Shown: piece by piece, positions 3,765-15,603 of the stretch | Layout: each line of letters opens with the position of its first letter | Numbering within the stretch: the stretch's first letter is position 1 | Translations under genes and position numbers: made by a program | The notes under the pieces: model-generated | Told to the model about the DNA's origin: nothing | What the model saw: only the letters and a program-made list of their open reading frames with translations | Databases searched by the model: none | IMG/VR virus record: IMGVR_UViG_3300028045_000070 | DNA: 28,629 nucleotides | Direction: 5' to 3' (one strand) | DNA from: a virus

Positions 3765-5381
3765 CTACAGATCCAATTGTCTACCAGCACTAGTATCACC
3801 GGGGTTGTCAATAACGCTGGCGTTGACAGCATTCTTGGAAGCCCACGCTGCCATATGATCTAGCTGCTTTGACTTTGATTTGGCTAGGGGGTTTGTCTGG
3901 TTAATAGCAACCTCAATGCCTTTAGCACTGATTTCCTCTTCCTTGTAAAAGGCACTGTAAAGTGCACTTACAATGGATTCCTCTAGCTCCGCTCCGCTGA
4001 AATCCTTTGATGCTTCGACACAACTGTCAACGCCCTCGGCAAAAACCTCACTAGGATCACGACCGTACTTCTTGACGTGAATATTAAGAATCTCTTCTCG
4101 CTCTTTAGTAGAAGGCAGGCCAACGAAGAAGATTTCATCGAAGCGGCCCTTACGCAAAAGCTCAGGAGGCAACCCTTCAATCCGGTTGACAGTAGCAACG
4201 ATAAATACCGGAGCAGTTTTCTCCTGCATCCAGGTGATGAAGTTGCCAAAGACACGCTGGCTAGTCCCCCCATCAGTTGAGCCACCGCCCATTCCTGAAA
4301 ATGCCTTATCCATTTCATCAATCCAGAGAACGCAGTTACCTACCGCCTCAACAGTCTGAATAGCTGTGCGCAGATTAGCCTCACTTTGACCGACCAGACC
4401 GCCGAAGACACGTCCGACATCAAAGCGGATCAGGGGAACACCAAGAATGTTGCTAGTGGCTTTAGCTGAGAGGCTCTTGCCGCACCCAGGAAGGCCCACT
4501 AGCAAGATACCGCGAGGCATGGGCAGTTTGAAGTCGCGGGCCTTCTTACTAAAAGCCTTACTGCGAATCATTAGCCACTTTTTGAGGTTCTGTAGTCCCC
4601 CAACATCCTTGGCCGTTTCCGCTGCCTCAAAATACTCCAGAATGCCTGTCTTTTTAACAGCCAGTGCCTTTTCTCCTAGAACCATTTTAGAGATGGGCTT
4701 TACTTCTTCCTCTCCTGCCTTTTTGGCTTCAGCCCGCTCTACCAAGGCTTTGGAGAATGCCGCTTCTGCTTCGTCTGTGGTCAAACCCATAGCAGCCTGG
4801 ACGATACGTTCAATCTCATCGTCCTCGATAACACCGATTTTCTTCTTGTTACCGCTGTACAGTGCGTTAAAGATCTGGAAGATTTCCTCCTTGCCAGGAA
4901 GATCAAACTCAATAAGAGAGATATCTTTTTCCAGTTCCTTGGGAATTTCGCTAACTGGGCTAATGATAATCAAGGTTTTCTGCGTTTGCCGAAAATCCTT
5001 AGCAATATCCCGAATAAGACGCCTAATTACTGGATTCTTCAGAAAACTGTGAAAATCACGAAATACGAAGATTTTCTTTCCAGGCCGATCTTTGATCGCT
5101 TGCAGGGCCTCCCCAGGATCAGTCTCTTCATCCAGGGCCTCAGCACCATTTGCACCGATTTCGATAAAGCCTTCCGTGCAAGACCATACCTCAAGACCAC
5201 GCTTGCACTTTTTAGCGGCTTCAAAGATAGTCATCTCGCCACGATTTTCTTCTGCTGTTTGCAGGTAGATAATCGGGTAGCTGGCCTTGATGTAGGGAAC
5301 AAGTATATTCATGTGATCCACGTAGGTTAGTGGGAGGCGTCTATATGCCCATATTAGAGCACAGAATACGCTTTTTGTCAA
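3765..5381 (-). CDS. AAA+ ATPase, Ycf46-like family
   Basis: Walker A is LLVGLPGCGKSLSAKA and Walker B is VLWIDEMDKAF. The sensor/arginine-finger region LRKGRFDEIFFVGLP and the LIRFDVGRVFGG motif are characteristic of Ycf46. Confidence 0.85.
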   Translation of the reverse strand: MTKSVFCALIWAYRRLPLTYVDHMNILVPYIKASYPIIYLQTAEENRGEMTIFEAAKKCKRGLEVWSCTEGFIEIGANGAEALDEETDPGEALQAIKDRPGKKIFVFRDFHSFLKNPVIRRLIRDIAKDFRQTQKTLIIISPVSEIPKELEKDISLIEFDLPGKEEIFQIFNALYSGNKKKIGVIEDDEIERIVQAAMGLTTDEAEAAFSKALVERAEAKKAGEEEVKPISKMVLGEKALAVKKTGILEYFEAAETAKDVGGLQNLKKWLMIRSKAFSKKARDFKLPMPRGILLVGLPGCGKSLSAKATSNILGVPLIRFDVGRVFGGLVGQSEANLRTAIQTVEAVGNCVLWIDEMDKAFSGMGGGSTDGGTSQRVFGNFITWMQEKTAPVFIVATVNRIEGLPPELLRKGRFDEIFFVGLPSTKEREEILNIHVKKYGRDPSEVFAEGVDSCVEASKDFSGAELEESIVSALYSAFYKEEEISAKGIEVAINQTNPLAKSKSKQLDHMAAWASKNAVNASVIDNPGDTSAGRQLDL

Positions 5382-6318: not shown

Positions 6319-6648
6319 ATGTATGGATTTGTAACCGATAGCCCACTATTCGATAACCCAGGTGGCTTTAATAGAGCACTAACTAATGAAGAGAGTCTTC
6401 GTTTACGAGCCTCTGCACAACAAGCAATAGAAGCAGGCCGCCCTATGACAATGGCTGAGATGTATGGAAAGCCTCAGCAGCTATTTAGGCAACTAAGTGG
6501 GTTTGATGGCCTAGAATCAGCAGCAGGCAGCGCAGTTGTGGGAATTATTCTAGGGGCTTTTCTAGCGTCTAAGTGGGGAATTAAACTTTTTCCGGTTGGT
6601 CTTATCATCGGCTATACAGTAACTAGTCAATTAGTGGAGCACATGTAA
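6319..6648 (+). CDS. small membrane protein
   Basis: 109-aa ORF with a hydrophobic C-terminus, lying in an AT-rich plus-strand mini-operon. Confidence 0.45.
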   Translation: MYGFVTDSPLFDNPGGFNRALTNEESLRLRASAQQAIEAGRPMTMAEMYGKPQQLFRQLSGFDGLESAAGSAVVGIILGAFLASKWGIKLFPVGLIIGYTVTSQLVEHM

Positions 6649-6932
6649 TGAAAAGTATCGGTTTTGGTGCCTATGATGGCTTTTTAAGTGTGAAACCTGC
6701 ATCTTTATCTTTAGGGCAGTATCGACATAATCCCCATCAAGCTCAAGCTCAAGAAACGGGGCTGAGCCTAACCTCACAAATAGTGATGGGTGCGGTTATT
6801 GCTTCACAGCTAGGCGCATACATATATAAAGAAGTGGCAGGCACTCCAGATTTTCGCTGGCACTGGTATGACACAGTCTTAATTCCGTCTTATATGCTAT
6901 TCGGAATATTCGAGATTTTTGGTAAAAAGTAA
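6648..6932 (+). CDS. small membrane protein
   Basis: 94-aa ORF whose start overlaps the upstream stop (TAATG). Confidence 0.45.
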   Translation: MKSIGFGAYDGFLSVKPASLSLGQYRHNPHQAQAQETGLSLTSQIVMGAVIASQLGAYIYKEVAGTPDFRWHWYDTVLIPSYMLFGIFEIFGKK

Positions 6933-6979
6933 AACTATCTCTCGTGTTGAGGCACGCTCATGCTATACTAGCCTTCATG

Positions 6980-7204
6980 GTAGTAGATTGTAGAAGTTGC
7001 CACAAAGAAATAGGGTATACAAAATCCATAGAAGGCCATAAAAGGCCCCTTTCATATCTCTATGATATCCCCATGCTAAGTGGGATGGCTAAAGCTGTCA
7101 ATGATGATTGGGTTGGAGTAATTTACAGTGATGAAATCTATTGCCGCCTTTGCATAAGCAGTAAACGCGTTGTTTTTGGAACTATTAATTCTCTTTTCCA
7201 GTAA
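6980..7204 (+). CDS. small Cys-rich protein (CxxC...CxxC)
   Basis: MVVDCRSCHKE...YCRLCISS. The track ORF begins at 6944 with TTG. The ATG at 6980 is preferred because it lies 7 nt after a TATACT box. Confidence 0.35.
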   Translation, partial: VVDCRSCHKEIGYTKSIEGHKRPLSYLYDIPMLSGMAKAVNDDWVGVIYSDEIYCRLCISSKRVVFGTINSLFQ

Positions 7205-8043: not shown

Positions 8044-8691
8044 TCAGGTTTCTATATTTTTACCAGCCCCGAGTTTGATAGACCCACCATTTTTCTTTAA
8101 AGTGCCATCGCGCAACATCTCATTAAGAACAATGTTAGCTCTTACTTTTCTGACCCTTCGTAATTCTATTAGACGAGTAATTTCTTTATCTTCATTCATA
8201 AAACGGTTTAATAGTTCGTCTTTTGAAATCTTGGAGTCCCCTAAAGATTTCAAAAGAGATTCTTGTATTTTATCTTGTTCTTCTGTAATAGCTATCGGCA
8301 GCGGGTTCCATTTGCGAGTAGGATGCTCCCAATGATCCATCTCACAAGCAAAATGACGATGCTTTGTATTAGCTTTCCTAAAGCAAGGAGGCTCTAGAAT
8401 TAGCATCCATTCAGTACCTGCAGATAGCTTAGGGAAAAACTCCCTCCCCCGCTCGTAATCGCGGCTAATTACGTTATAGTTGTAAGGCTTCCCAAAAATA
8501 GATTTACCACTAAACTGCTCTTTAATGGTAGCCCAAAAACGTGATGACCAACACCAATCGCTCCCTACAATTCGATCCCCATCATAGGTATCAAAGAAGG
8601 TGACAAGACCAAACCAAGACTCTCTCCATAAAACAAAAGTTGTATAGAGGGTGGATTGCTCTTCGAAGATTATAATGTTTGTTTGGCTCAT
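8044..8691 (-). CDS. hypothetical protein (AT-rich segment)
   Basis: The ATG at 8689-8691 shares a base with the stop of the upstream MetRS-like ORF (TAATG), so the start was set at the internal Met of the track ORF. Confidence 0.45.
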   Translation of the reverse strand: MSQTNIIIFEEQSTLYTTFVLWRESWFGLVTFFDTYDGDRIVGSDWCWSSRFWATIKEQFSGKSIFGKPYNYNVISRDYERGREFFPKLSAGTEWMLILEPPCFRKANTKHRHFACEMDHWEHPTRKWNPLPIAITEEQDKIQESLLKSLGDSKISKDELLNRFMNEDKEITRLIELRRVRKVRANIVLNEMLRDGTLKKNGGSIKLGAGKNIET

Positions 8692-8990
8692 TAATTCTTC
8701 TCCAGGCGAGGGAACAGAGGCTCGCACTTAACGATTTTCTCAGCCAGAAGATTATCAAGAATCTTTTCTGCCGTTTCGGGAATTACGGGAGAAGCTAGAT
8801 TTACCAAGAAAATAACATCATTGACCAGAGTTGTTAAGACTTGCGTCAGACGCTCAGTCTCTCCCTTCTTGTAGAGTTCCCAAGGTTTTTCATCTTCGAT
8901 GGTTTTATTAGCTTGCCGAAGACGAGTCCAGATATCCTCCAAACCTTCTTTAAAGCGCAGATCGCGATATTCTTCTGGAACTCTCGACAT
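8691..8990 (-). CDS. stand-alone fragment resembling the C-terminal anticodon-binding domain of methionyl-tRNA synthetase
   Basis: KPWELYKKGETERLTQVLTTLVNDVIFLVNLASPVIPETAEKILDNL...EPLFPRLE matches the MetRS helical anticodon-binding region and its terminal PLFPR motif. The ORF is only 99 aa but has its own promoter. Confidence 0.55.
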   Translation of the reverse strand: MSRVPEEYRDLRFKEGLEDIWTRLRQANKTIEDEKPWELYKKGETERLTQVLTTLVNDVIFLVNLASPVIPETAEKILDNLLAEKIVKCEPLFPRLEKN

Positions 8991-9011
8991 CTCTCACCGC
9001 CTTCTAAGGAG

Positions 9012-9039
9012 AGCTTACCTTAAGGAGGATCCCTGTCAA
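9012..9039 (-). promoter_or_regulatory. sigma70-type promoter (TTGACAGG, N16, TAAGCT)
   Basis: The minus strand reads TTGACAGGGATCCTCCTTAAGGTAAGCT, about 20 nt upstream of the 8990 ATG. Confidence 0.5.
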
Positions 9040-9054
9040 GGGACTGTAATCTTA

Positions 9055-9441
9055 CTATTGATTTGCTGAATGCTTAGGAGCATAGAAAGTACAAAGTTCA
9101 GTCCCAGCAGATACATCCTTCAGGGCGATGAAATCTAATAATCTGTTCTGGTCCCTGCCATTGATACTATAAAAAACATTTGGTGTCTTAGAGTGGTTGA
9201 ATATTGATCCATACCCGAAAACAACTAAGGCACCCTTTGGGTTACAGTGAGATTTAAAAACATAATTCTGCAGAATATTTGATTGGTCATATATCATATC
9301 CTTGTGAACTTCAACAAAAGGACAAATCTCTAATAGTTCCCCTTTTCGGATAGAACTTTTAGCGAAAACACCATAACCCGCTCCGGGAATTTTACTTTTA
9401 CCGATTATGAGTTTTACAGGCCCCTGGTACTTAGAATACAT
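9055..9441 (-). CDS. minimal SET-domain lysine methyltransferase (vSET-like, 128 aa)
   Basis: GAGYGVFAKSSIRKGELLEICPF is the SET-N GxG motif. FNHSKTPNV is the NHSxxPN motif. AGTELCTFY supplies the catalytic Tyr region. The overall layout resembles Chlorella virus vSET. Confidence 0.7.
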   Translation of the reverse strand: MYSKYQGPVKLIIGKSKIPGAGYGVFAKSSIRKGELLEICPFVEVHKDMIYDQSNILQNYVFKSHCNPKGALVVFGYGSIFNHSKTPNVFYSINGRDQNRLLDFIALKDVSAGTELCTFYAPKHSANQ

Positions 9442-9472
9442 ATGTTTATATTACCAAATAGGCGCATCATTG

Positions 9473-10165
9473 CTAATCTTGAAAAGATCTAAAACCAAAC
9501 CTAGCTCTTAGGAAATCCACAATATCTTGAACTTTTTCTGTTTCAACATATGGCCCGATTCCCTCGTCATAAGGACTGCAAACATCTTGGTGAGGAAAGC
9601 CGTATAGCAACCCACCAAAGTCATATTGTGTTGTTTTTAGAGTAACTATGGCTTCATCCATGCCATCCCACTCAACCTCTGTGTCGTATTCCGACCCTTT
9701 AACATAATTGTCAATTTCTGTTTGTTTTTCTATGTCTGATTCCTCTATCCAAGGAGGATGATCATCCTCGAAAAAATACCTTTTTACTACAACAGGGGCC
9801 ACGCTAAACATAAATTCCCATTGAGTGTAGCCATAAATGTCGTTAAGAAACTTTCTCGGCTTGCAGTATAAGCCAGGACCGGCTTGTATTGATAGAAAGT
9901 AGCTGCGTTGCGAGTATGGGTGTTCTATATCTTCTTGACCAAAGACCAGAGCATCAAAAGTTGGGCCGAAGTCCTTGTTCTTCTTATTCAACAAAGTTCT
10001 AAAATCTATTGGCTCCTGGTTTTGAAGCACATGCCTGGTCCCGGCATATAAGATCCTAGGTTCAACCTCAAGCCCCCTTCTTCTGCAGTAAATAAAGGCA
10101 CGGCTGCAAGCCTCTTCATCGCCTTGAAAACATTGTCTTTCCAGTTCGCGGTATTTTTCATCCAT
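9473..10165 (-). CDS. hypothetical protein
   Basis: 230-aa ORF with no recognisable motif. Confidence 0.45.
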   Translation of the reverse strand: MDEKYRELERQCFQGDEEACSRAFIYCRRRGLEVEPRILYAGTRHVLQNQEPIDFRTLLNKKNKDFGPTFDALVFGQEDIEHPYSQRSYFLSIQAGPGLYCKPRKFLNDIYGYTQWEFMFSVAPVVVKRYFFEDDHPPWIEESDIEKQTEIDNYVKGSEYDTEVEWDGMDEAIVTLKTTQYDFGGLLYGFPHQDVCSPYDEGIGPYVETEKVQDIVDFLRARFGFRSFQD

Positions 10166-10187
10166 GAACGTATTTTACCAAACCCTC

Positions 10188-10652
10188 TCAAAAATAAAGA
10201 GGAGGAATCTGGTCTACCGCCCAACAACTATCATCCAACAGATAATCAATAAAGGTTTCAGCGTCGTCAGTGCTAAAATTACTTTTCTGCCAAAACTCAT
10301 ATTTTGATCGTTCTTTGATGGGCGTTACTAGCTGACTCGGATCTAATCCAAATTGTGTGGCCGTGATATCAACGATGTAATCGCCATATTCCACATAACA
10401 GTGCCCACTAAGGTCTTCATCATCTAACCAAACAACAAGCTGGGGCTTGAACCGCTCATCCGCCATATTGAGCACAACCGCATTATTGAGCATGTGGAAA
10501 ACTTTCATCGCCCCATATGCACATAATCCGGTCATACTACTATAACCACCAACCTCTTCTTTATACAGTTCTAGCGACACCCGCGCTTTTGAGGCCACCT
10601 TTTTGATAATACTACTTGTTAGCATGAGAATCTTCTTTAACTTGGTCCCCAA
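10188..10652 (-). CDS. possible transglutaminase-like cysteine peptidase (Cys-His-Asp)
   Basis: GLCAYGAMKVF...GHCYVEYGDYIVDITATQ places the three residues in the order expected for a transglutaminase-like core. The start codon is uncertain. Confidence 0.35.
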   Translation of the reverse strand: MGTKLKKILMLTSSIIKKVASKARVSLELYKEEVGGYSSMTGLCAYGAMKVFHMLNNAVVLNMADERFKPQLVVWLDDEDLSGHCYVEYGDYIVDITATQFGLDPSQLVTPIKERSKYEFWQKSNFSTDDAETFIDYLLDDSCWAVDQIPPLYF

Positions 10653-14137: not shown

Positions 14138-15211
14138 CTAAGCACCAAAGTAGTGCAGCACAAAGTACCAACCAGCCATATCTACAGCAGCAAACAAAGC
14201 CACTACTGCCAGACCAATCTTAACCTTGCTGCTAGGGTTCGACACCTTAGCCCAGGCCCTCTTCACAAGACCAGGACTCTTGGTAGTCAGCATAGCAACA
14301 TTCAAGTGGGTTTTTTCTCCAGAAGGAGACTCTACCTGCCAAACATTTGCTGAAACCTTAGCAAGCAGAATGTAAGATGCACTCTTGAAGACGTGGTAAA
14401 CCTTCATTCCAGCGATAAACGACTGTTGGGCAATCTCTACACGGGCCTTACCCGGAGCAACCTCTTCCGCAGCATCTTGGTAGTGGGTTGAGACGACAGC
14501 CTCAAGGACGTTTTTAGCTGTAAGCAATTTCGGTGTATCTGGCTCGTTCATAACTGGTTCCTTAATCTCTGTCTTACCCATTGTAGTGGCGGGGTCTACG
14601 CCGAAGAATGATGTGCCATACTTGTCGAAGTAGGTTCCCTCTGCAAGATTTCCAGGTGGCTTCCCGCTGGCAAATGCGGCAGAATAAGATGCCTTCCCGG
14701 TGGCAAATGCGGCAGCATAGGATGCTTGCCACTCTCGACACTGGCAGCCAAAGCCCATCAACTCCTTCATAGTGCAAGAGCACAAATCAATTTCTTGACA
14801 AGGATTTGTTTGTCCCGAAGGGGCTTGAAAGTAGCCTGGCTCATAAGGCTCATATTGCTCGGTTGAGCACAATTCCGGGTGTTTTGGTTTTGCTGTTTTC
14901 ATATCAAAAGCTCCTTCGCTCGTAAACCTATCAGGATAGCCAGAAAAAATCGCATTCAACTCGCGGAACTTCTTTGCCACGATCTTTGCTTTGCACTTAT
15001 ATCCGACTTTTTCGGCGCACCCCGGATGATACCACTTATGATAATCGCCCCAATCGGAGGAGTTTGCCGGAACACCGACGCGGGTTGACTTATCCGCAAT
15101 TAGCTCCTGGCATTCTCGGCATTTGCTGGTGCCCGATTTAGCAGTCGCTACGATGAAAGCCTTCTTTTTCTTTTTCCGTTTCGTCTTTGGCATACTCGCG
15201 CTCGCGCTCAT
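14138..15211 (-). CDS. PARP-type zinc-finger (zf-PARP) protein with the paralog-family C-terminal domain and TM anchor (family member 2)
   Basis: AKSGTSKCRECQELI-x27-HKWYHPGC has the same spacing as the PARP1 nick-sensor finger (C-x2-C-x28-H-x2-C) and follows a KKKKKK stretch. The C-terminus HYQDAAEEVAPGKARVEIAQQSFIAGMKVYHVFK... ends in a TM helix. The start was set at the internal ATG 15211, which the promoter geometry makes leaderless. Confidence 0.7.
   Translation of the reverse strand: MSASASMPKTKRKKKKKAFIVATAKSGTSKCRECQELIADKSTRVGVPANSSDWGDYHKWYHPGCAEKVGYKCKAKIVAKKFRELNAIFSGYPDRFTSEGAFDMKTAKPKHPELCSTEQYEPYEPGYFQAPSGQTNPCQEIDLCSCTMKELMGFGCQCREWQASYAAAFATGKASYSAAFASGKPPGNLAEGTYFDKYGTSFFGVDPATTMGKTEIKEPVMNEPDTPKLLTAKNVLEAVVSTHYQDAAEEVAPGKARVEIAQQSFIAGMKVYHVFKSASYILLAKVSANVWQVESPSGEKTHLNVAMLTTKSPGLVKRAWAKVSNPSSKVKIGLAVVALFAAVDMAGWYFVLHYFGA
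14661..14726. repeat. 2x33 bp intragenic tandem duplication (encodes ASYAAAFATGK / ASYSAAFASGK)
   Basis: Read directly from the sequence. Confidence 0.6.
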
Positions 15212-15218
15212 TTTTCCT

Positions 15219-15247
15219 ATTAGATCACGCAGGGCGGGATCTGTCAA
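15219..15247 (-). promoter_or_regulatory. sigma70-type promoter (TTGACAG, N17, TCTAAT) with the ATG 7 nt after the -10
   Basis: The minus strand reads TTGACAGATCCCGCCCTGCGTGATCTAATAGGAAAAATG. Confidence 0.5.
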
Positions 15248-15255
15248 TGGAAGCC

Positions 15256-15603
15256 TCAAAGCCAAACCAGAGCCAAGCTGCCCCTTTTATTTTCGGTATC
15301 GACCTCTACAACAGGATGCAGTTTCTTGTCTTTGCCTAAAGGGGCAACACCTTGCAATTTAAGCTCTTTTTCAAGAGTTTTAACTGCGTGGCCGGGATTA
15401 AATGCTGCAACAATTTCTATTGCTTCATCCAAAGAACGACATTCATAGTAACGCTTATCACTTTTCCAGTTGAGCAGGCATTGGATGGTCATCCAATTAA
15501 AGCCGATGGACACACCTGTAAGAGATATAAGATTCTCGCCCTCATTACATGGAATTGCACAAAGAATATCAGAAAGCTGCTGTAGTTTCTCGAAATCAAT
15601 CAC
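15256..15603 (-). CDS. hypothetical protein (start uncertain)
   Basis: The track ORF 15256-15753 overlaps the upstream gene by 158 nt. A GTG at 15601-15603, preceded by AGGACGG and overlapping the upstream TGA (GTGATTGA), is a plausible coupled start. Confidence 0.35.
   Translation of the reverse strand: MIDFEKLQQLSDILCAIPCNEGENLISLTGVSIGFNWMTIQCLLNWKSDKRYYECRSLDEAIEIVAAFNPGHAVKTLEKELKLQGVAPLGKDKKLHPVVEVDTENKRGSLALVWL

Follow-up and report, generated by a model that had tools for sequence, protein, structure and literature searches.

The 28,629-nt stretch of viral DNA filed as IMG/VR record IMGVR_UViG_3300028045_000070 (the window) contains an open reading frame (ORF) of 99 amino acids that corresponds to the C-terminal ∼100 residues of methionyl-tRNA synthetase (MetRS, encoded by metG) and lacks the whole catalytic part of this enzyme. 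We favor the interpretation that this fragment is the orphaned 3′ end of a metG gene, the main role of which is now to provide the gene downstream with its ribosome-binding and coupling region, and give this reading a probability of about 50%. Most likely, the fragment is a leftover of recombination rather than a proven tRNA decoy and therefore a modest curiosity; gene flux in a huge phage probably produced it as an ordinary by-product.

Homology and truncation of the fragment

Pfam, NCBIfam, PDB, and fold matches all agree with the preliminary description of this DNA in that the 99-aa ORF encodes the anticodon-binding C-terminal region of MetRS through the terminal PLFPR motif. Its product matches Pfam family PF19303 (Anticodon_3) with 24.9 bits, above the gathering cut-off of 23.5, over profile positions 41–104 of 152. 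All three NCBIfam metG models recognize it as well (E = 7.9e-15, 6.2e-12, and 5.5e-11), solely through their C-terminal part (e.g., positions 398–479 of 648) and with scores of 54.4, 45.0, and 41.7 bits, which are below the respective equivalog cut-offs of 598, 336, and 587. Every best match (E ≤ 0.001) of a sequence search against the PDB is a MetRS chain. An AlphaFold2 (AF2) model, calculated from an alignment of 51 sequences, reaches a predicted local distance difference test score (pLDDT) of 88, a confidence that derives from the alignment of full-length enzymes and says nothing about the stability of the isolated fragment. The model shows helices at residues 6–34, 36–41, 45–66, and 71–81 followed by an extended tail, and the 50 top PDB matches of a fold search with it are without exception MetRS structures (TM-score on the query 0.56–0.71). 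A resemblance to some other helical domain, considered initially, is not borne out by these sequence and fold matches.

Within MetRS, the fragment represents the PLFPR tail and, from the anticodon-binding bundle, the final three long helices. It is collinear with the enzyme over its full 99 residues without a single gap, at 36–47% identity to its closest relatives, and aligns to residues ∼404–513 of a 513-residue full-length relative (P0082), the last residue of which it reaches. L92, F93, and P94 of the PLFPR motif are invariant in the 51 aligned sequences, and the stop codon follows four codons past this motif, which is the end point of short-form MetRS. The KPW motif aligns on the conserved QPW of Aquifex aeolicus MetRS (2csx), and its Trp residue (W37) is invariant in the alignment of relatives. 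Together with W37, the residues kept from the conserved set are P36, P68, P71, T73, K76, and the LFP of the tail. The product has a mass of 11.7 kDa and is acidic, with an isoelectric point (pI) of 5.1 and a net charge of about –3; the G+C content of the gene is 43.3%, within one standard deviation of the mean of the window genes. From these sequence comparisons, we regard the origin of the ORF from a metG tail as secure.

The part missing from the fragment, residues 1 to ∼400 of MetRS, comprises the Rossmann fold, the connective peptide, and the first helix of the anticodon domain with its Asn and Arg residues. We looked for these parts in ∼48 kb consisting of the window and 10 kb on each side (contig positions 213,831–261,461), which extends the search for a catalytic piece to ∼17–20 kb on either side of the fragment. 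No second MetRS-like piece was found in any frame by tblastn with full-length MetRS proteins. A full-length MetRS hidden Markov model, run with filters off against all six-frame stop-to-stop pieces, matched only the 99-aa ORF (E = 2e-21, compared to E > 2 for all other pieces), and PF09334 (tRNA-synt_1g), the Rossmann catalytic domain with the HIGH and KMSKS motifs, is absent from the ORF as well as from all these pieces. These searches support the initial observation that the catalytic domain is lacking, and an intact metG, thought of as possibly present elsewhere in the genome, does not occur in the region covered. The fragment is unable to aminoacylate, and, judging from its sequence, any MetRS-type activity of its own is improbable. 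The label “methionyl-tRNA synthetase,” which JGI assigns to the 99-aa product, is an over-annotation of a fragment without a catalytic domain; for annotation in general, this is a relevant example of an ORF that cannot be the enzyme it is named after.

The truncation point lies inside the helical bundle and not at a domain boundary. In P0082, PF09334 covers residues 14–370 with the KMSKS motif at position 306, and the helix GNLLNR (363–368) provides the Asn and Arg residues as N364 and R368. This helix ends ∼40 residues before the start of the fragment, and about 40–45 residues of the bundle are missing. In Escherichia coli MetRS, the anticodon of tRNA-Met is read by Asn391, Arg395, and Trp461 (PMC10535265, table 4). 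Only one of these three residues is retained in the fragment, namely the Trp that stacks on C34, and the Asn/Arg helix is absent. Immediately 5′ of the ATG start codon, the frame contains three stops (TGA, TAA, and TGA).

An assembly or sequencing artefact, either a frameshifted metG or a chimera, is a frequent source of short MetRS-tail ORFs in databases, as described below. Here, it is ruled out: nine contigs from independent samples, projects, and assemblers are 99.95–100% identical through both junctions without any difference inside the ORF, the SET-domain gene upstream is complete, and no similarity to MetRS precedes the fragment. The earlier concern that the ORF might be the true 3′ end of an intact but frameshifted metG is dispelled by the latter two observations.

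Junctions with the neighboring genes

The features of the fragment and its immediate surroundings are listed in Table 1. The stop codon of the fragment and the start codon of a downstream gene of 215 codons overlap by one base in the sequence TAATG, confirming the coupling noted previously; the overlap also agrees with independent gene calls (10001–10300 and 10300–10947 on contig L001). The end codons of the fragment, CTG GAG AAG AAT TAA, contain a Shine-Dalgarno-like GGAG for the downstream gene. GGAG or GAGG is found at a like distance upstream of about half of the genes of this genome, as judged from the list of all called genes.

Table 1. Features of the metG-derived fragment and its flanking sequences (window coordinates)
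Feature	Position	Strand	Basis or remarks
99-aa ORF, C-terminal ∼100 residues of MetRS	8691..8990	minus	ATG start; sequence homology and fold match
Codons of P91-L-F-P-R95, conserved C-terminal motif of the MetRS core	8706..8720	minus	alignment
Codons of K35-P36-W37; W37 corresponds to E. coli MetRS Trp461	8880..8888	minus	alignment
TAATG, stop of the fragment and start of the 215-aa gene, overlapping by one base	8689..8693	minus	read from sequence
GGAG, Shine-Dalgarno-like motif for the 215-aa gene	8700..8703	minus	within the end codons of the fragment
215-aa gene, downstream of and coupled to the fragment	8044..8691	minus	gene call
64-nt spacer between the SET stop codon and the ATG of the fragment	8991..9054	minus	TTGACA, three in-frame stops, weak purine-rich stretch AAGGCGGTGAGAG
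SET-domain protein, 128 aa, upstream neighbor of the fragment	9055..9441	minus	PF00856, E = 1.6e-13

The product of the 215-aa gene has no match in Pfam, PHROG, or PADLOC, and its AF2 model, based on an alignment of two sequences, is unusable (pLDDT 36). It has a single homolog, P0263, with 45% identity by BLASTP and 47% over the alignment, which is encoded on a 6.9-kb contig (L016, 2488–4119) directly after a PNK-like gene (AAA_33 and PNK3P) and a ClpP gene. No MetRS fragment is located near the gene for P0263, and, in the alignment, this gene starts two codons farther inside the frame than the 215-aa gene. Because of these two differences, the junction between the fragment and the 215-aa gene looks like a lineage-specific recombination joint at the sequence level. 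As a separate observation, the P0263 gene is located beside a PNK-like gene, a hint that genes for RNA end healing may move together with the 215-aa family.

On the upstream side, the spacer had been thought to provide the fragment with a promoter of its own. Its TTGACA (9034–9039, minus strand) is indeed present, but the best –10 element, TAAGCT, matches the consensus at only three of six positions, and a consensus promoter scan makes no call at this site. Seven promoter-like sites were found in the region compared to 6.5 ± 2.5 expected from shuffled sequences, which is the level of chance, and the idea of an own promoter is not supported by these data. The spacer also shows no significant RNA structure (z = 0.53) and no match to Rfam. 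The AT-rich block that the fragment shares with the SET gene does exist but is not pronounced: genes located from 8044 to 10625 have a G+C content of 37.5–43%, with the SET gene being the lowest (37.5%), compared to a mean of 46.2 ± 3.8% for all genes of the window.

Origin and possible roles of the fragment

The identical 99-aa protein is encoded on at least 21 contigs, the longest of which comprise 599,739 bp (JGI 3300072015) and 318,241 bp (ENA ERZ27250555 k141_3911615). On the 318-kb contig, the locus is found at about 230 kb. The genes in the ∼48 kb around the fragment are small and tightly packed, and overlaps between them are frequent; almost all lie on the same strand, and most have no Pfam domain. 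About ten of them match protein families of prokaryotic viruses, including phrog_8638 (1e-139), phrog_33734 (3e-169), and phrog_62 (4e-64), as well as PHROG families of RNA ligases and HNH proteins. Genes for capsid, portal, or terminase proteins were not found within this region. A blastn search of INPHARED with 6 kb of the locus gave no matches; neither did an exact 42-mer of the ORF in IMG/VR, GTDB genomes, and JGI metagenomes, nor scans of IMG/VR with the fragment and with its 215-aa neighbor. Based on size and gene content, the element would be a huge phage that has not been cultured; another type of very large extrachromosomal element is less likely.

Searching 1.84 billion cluster representatives with the fragment by phmmer without filters returned 881 matches at E ≤ 1e-3, nearly all of which end in PLFPR; the best ones besides the fragment itself are 41–47% identical. 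In 185,579 GTDB species genomes, the named relatives (36–45% identity) belong mostly to the Patescibacteria, such as Saccharimonadales, Kerfeldbacteria, Nanosyncoccus, and Peregrinibacteria, and to DPANN archaea. Neither ∼15 billion proteins nor the GTDB species representatives contain a metG with more than 47% protein identity to the fragment, and no family of free-standing homologs was found among the 1.84 billion cluster representatives and 5.8 billion clusters. Stand-alone copies are the identical protein and one K98E variant, which is located at the end of a 979-nt contig and is probably an end error. Many of the database matches are short, with ORFs of 89–190 amino acids that cover the MetRS tail alone. 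The loci that we checked represent ordinary metG genes in cellular neighborhoods: one is frameshifted, with a gene for a 359-aa catalytic domain directly upstream (L010), and three show an unannotated gap of 0.9–1.3 kb in front of the tail ORF (L011–L013). The metG gene of Microcystis phage MaAM05, detected by tblastn, was not informative, since it is a full-length gene with 27% identity among cellular-looking genes. In addition, some database proteins carry a MetRS tail on unrelated N-termini, including one similar to C5 DNA methyltransferases (P0043, with the motif DLFCGAGG), a different one (P0044), and one resembling a signal peptide (P0053); these fusions may stem from chimeric assembly or may reflect true junctions at the 3′ ends of metG genes. 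Among the papers searched, none deals with MetRS fragments of jumbo or huge phages, and none describes metG as an attachment site.

In our favored scenario, the 3′ end of a short-form metG would have been orphaned within the accessory gene array of a huge phage or a similar very large element. Two routes could have led there: either a metG of the phage lineage lost its first ∼400 codons, which were replaced by the lower-GC SET block, or a metG tail was captured by illegitimate recombination. The fragment would then have been kept as a small ORF that stayed open and is probably translated, because its end codons hold the GGAG motif and the overlapping start of the 215-aa gene. That the fragment arose by recombination, has no function of its own, and was kept for the reason given is what we infer from the cut within the bundle, the loss of two of the three specificity residues, the acidic product, the singleton status of the fragment, and the pairing with the 215-aa gene, which is not conserved. 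From structures of E. coli MetRS, the only known role of the C-terminal tail is to pack against the catalytic body, and the fragment retains those tail features that pack against parts now absent. With its PLFPR tail and core hydrophobic residues, it looks like an unmodified slice of MetRS rather than a domain re-engineered to stand alone. A lineage-specific metG without close database relatives is plausible, since huge phages carry up to 15 aminoacyl-tRNA synthetase (aaRS) genes that differ from the ones their hosts carry (Al-Shayeb et al. 2020, PMC7162821), and the loss of the 5′ part from such a gene would explain why no close donor is present in the databases. If the fragment is such a relic, it provides a small, clean example of huge phages gaining, breaking, and recycling translation genes, and would show how the stump of a gene may be preserved when its neighbor uses it for translation initiation.

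A number of observations weigh against this interpretation. The fragment is not detectably degenerated: scored with a profile built from half of 79 genuine MetRS tails, it reaches 98.3 bits compared to 95.7 ± 11.5 for the held-out other half, corresponding to the 65th percentile, although the reference set was picked by similarity to the fragment, which flatters its score. It deviates at four of 20 strongly conserved columns (A>G, L>A, F>V, and F>L) relative to a mean of 1.2 for genuine tails, but 10% of the latter deviate as much. If the capture is old, an intact frame with conserved residues would argue for purifying selection, given that the fragment is at most 47% identical to anything among the ∼15 billion proteins. 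Moreover, phage genomes usually purge useless DNA, and the ORF has a start codon with a weak purine-rich leader and is co-directional with its neighbors in a dense gene array. The retention of a ribosome-binding site accounts for only the last ∼20 nt and not for all 300. As far as can be judged from the sequence, there is neither clear decay nor clear re-engineering. The contigs carry no variation within the ORF, so selection (dN/dS) is not measurable from these nine.

The same observations would fit an exapted mini-protein, derived from the anticodon-binding region of MetRS and selected and expressed to act on the translation apparatus of the host. This could occur through the CAU anticodon loop of tRNA-Met or tRNA-fMet via the Trp residue, through docking to MetRS via PLFPR, or jointly with the 215-aa protein. 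We consider this reading possible but rather unlikely. It is favored by an intact ORF that ends exactly at the native stop codon, by the conserved residues that have been kept, and by a profile score equal to that of genuine enzymes in spite of the distance to all known sequences. The confident fold prediction points in the same direction, but this confidence reflects the MetRS alignment. Translational coupling to the 215-aa gene would suit a protein that acts with a partner, but this pairing is not conserved at the locus of the only known relative of that gene. Genes for RtcB, a 2H phosphoesterase, and a protein of an RNA ligase family lie in the same region, and such RNA-repair genes show the element to be engaged in conflict at the level of RNA or tRNA. 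Conversely, the absence of the Asn/Arg anticodon-reading helix, a cut within the bundle, and the lack of free-standing relatives speak against a selected protein. Free RNA binders are usually not acidic, and the pI of the fragment therefore counts against such a role.

The suggestion that the fragment acts as a decoy binding the anticodon of tRNA-Met, put forward at the outset, has these same points on its two sides, which leave it a possibility: the Trp stacking on C34 is kept, but the Asn/Arg helix, a basic charge, and free-standing relatives are not there. A more specific version holds that a huge phage deliberately makes this 11.7-kDa three-helix piece, co-translated with the 215-aa partner, to tune or hijack Met charging or initiation or to shield tRNA-Met from an anticodon nuclease. 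Here, the Trp would cover the CAU anticodon of tRNA-Met, either initiator or elongator, or the PLFPR tail would dock on MetRS. We regard this version as improbable. A selected mini-protein would be the first effector made from a free-standing piece of a class I helical anticodon-binding domain and would offer a way to study how tRNA-Met or MetRS is manipulated by phages; the effector function, if true, would define a new class of aaRS-fragment effectors in phage-host conflict. Interest in the fragment would rise sharply only given its expression and binding to tRNA or MetRS.

Could the fragment instead be the C-terminal part of a trans-split MetRS, with the catalytic body encoded elsewhere in the ∼600-kb genome? 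An undegenerated fragment that keeps PLFPR, whose normal partner is the catalytic body, would be in agreement with this idea. So would the large number of aaRS genes in huge phages (PMC7162821), and our search covered ∼48 kb of contigs of 318–600 kb. Nevertheless, no catalytic piece of MetRS is encoded on either side of the fragment within the distance searched, and the split would fall inside the helical bundle, about 40 residues past the Asn/Arg helix. To our knowledge, this is not a known split site in MetRS; known split or appended parts involve the C-terminal OB-fold domain. We therefore judge a split enzyme to be highly improbable.

Finally, the remnant of a metG 3′ end had been linked to an element that integrates into or next to metG. 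The remnant as such agrees with our interpretation, while its link to integration finds no support. According to that model, the fragment would be a surrogate metG 3′ end beside the attP site of the element, in line with the fact that it is an exact gene 3′ end including the stop codon. Yet Pfam annotation of all called genes in the ∼48 kb revealed no integrase or recombinase domain, and this region contains no direct repeat of the fragment that could serve as an att site. A donor gene is missing as well, as there is no metG of more than 47% identity and the 42-mer of the ORF is absent from GTDB genomes. In addition, the locus is situated deep in the 318-kb contig, among genes that mostly lack Pfam domains and several of which match phage families. 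This model is largely refuted, and we assign it very little weight compared to the orphaned metG 3′ end.

Surrounding genes and comparison with known systems

Several other genes around the fragment deserve mention. A 585-aa major vault protein (MVP) homolog is encoded at 16098–17855 (minus), with Vault repeats, an MVP shoulder (E = 1.3e-25), and similarity to Band_7; preprints have already described both viral MVPs, found in gut phages, and homologs of MVP in bacteria (10.1101/2023.11.10.566534, 10.1101/872010). The building blocks of PARP1 are distributed over three genes within 20 kb (14138–15265, 1529–2305, and 21773–22522, all minus), which encode zf-PARP, WGR, and the PARP catalytic domain. 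Further eukaryote-like genes of the size of single domains encode SET (9055–9441), Prok-RING_1 (992–1525), and SNF2 (19591–21627) proteins, and genes of this kind appear to be typical of this genome. Genes for RNA repair are located 10–17 kb from the fragment and encode a 2H phosphoesterase (2H-SAK) and RtcB (L097 13046–13501, 20259–20534, beyond the window start). Among 65 flanking ORFs (L015/L097), there is one match to a PHROG RNA ligase, one DHH phosphoesterase, and at least one match to an HNH endonuclease family. The AAA+ ATPase at 3765–5312 (minus) is the protein that matches phrog_8638 (E = 1e-139); it has homologs in Rhizobium, Rhodobacter, and Mycobacterium phages and resembles IetA of the Ietswaart defence system (PADLOC, E = 6e-24). 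The sole tRNA gene of the window encodes a tRNA-Thr (anticodon TGT; 22870–22942, minus). The array of minus-strand genes is broken by three plus-strand ORFs of 109, 94, and 86 amino acids (6319–7204), which were called as genes and the first two of which contain hydrophobic, membrane-spanning-like stretches.

Short tail-only ORFs similar in appearance to the fragment result from frameshifted or split metG calls in metagenome-assembled genomes. In those cases, the rest of metG is found upstream in another frame (L010) or a gap takes its place (L011–L013), whereas the fragment is preceded by an unrelated SET gene without any remains of MetRS. Aminoacyl-tRNA synthetase domains also exist as free-standing paralogs, such as Trbp111/CsaA, which is related to the C-terminal OB-fold of MetRS, YbaK/ProX, and AlaX. 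These are whole autonomous domains present in many genomes with demonstrated tRNA binding or editing. The fragment resembles them in being a piece of an aaRS encoded by a small gene of its own, but it comprises just a part of a helical bundle, has a different fold, and is a singleton.

With the short-form MetRS of Patescibacteria (candidate phyla radiation, CPR) and DPANN archaea, which has no C-terminal OB-fold appendix, the fragment shares the motifs ANK..KPW, PxxPET, and PLFPR as well as the end point; in contrast to these enzymes, it lacks residues 1 to ∼400 and scores far under the metG cut-offs. The aaRS genes of huge phages are complete enzymes confirmed by TIGRFAM (PMC7162821), whereas the fragment amounts to about a fifth of one and is non-catalytic. 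Like these genes, however, it is derived from the translation machinery, resides in a very large phage-like genome, and is unlike the known cellular copies.

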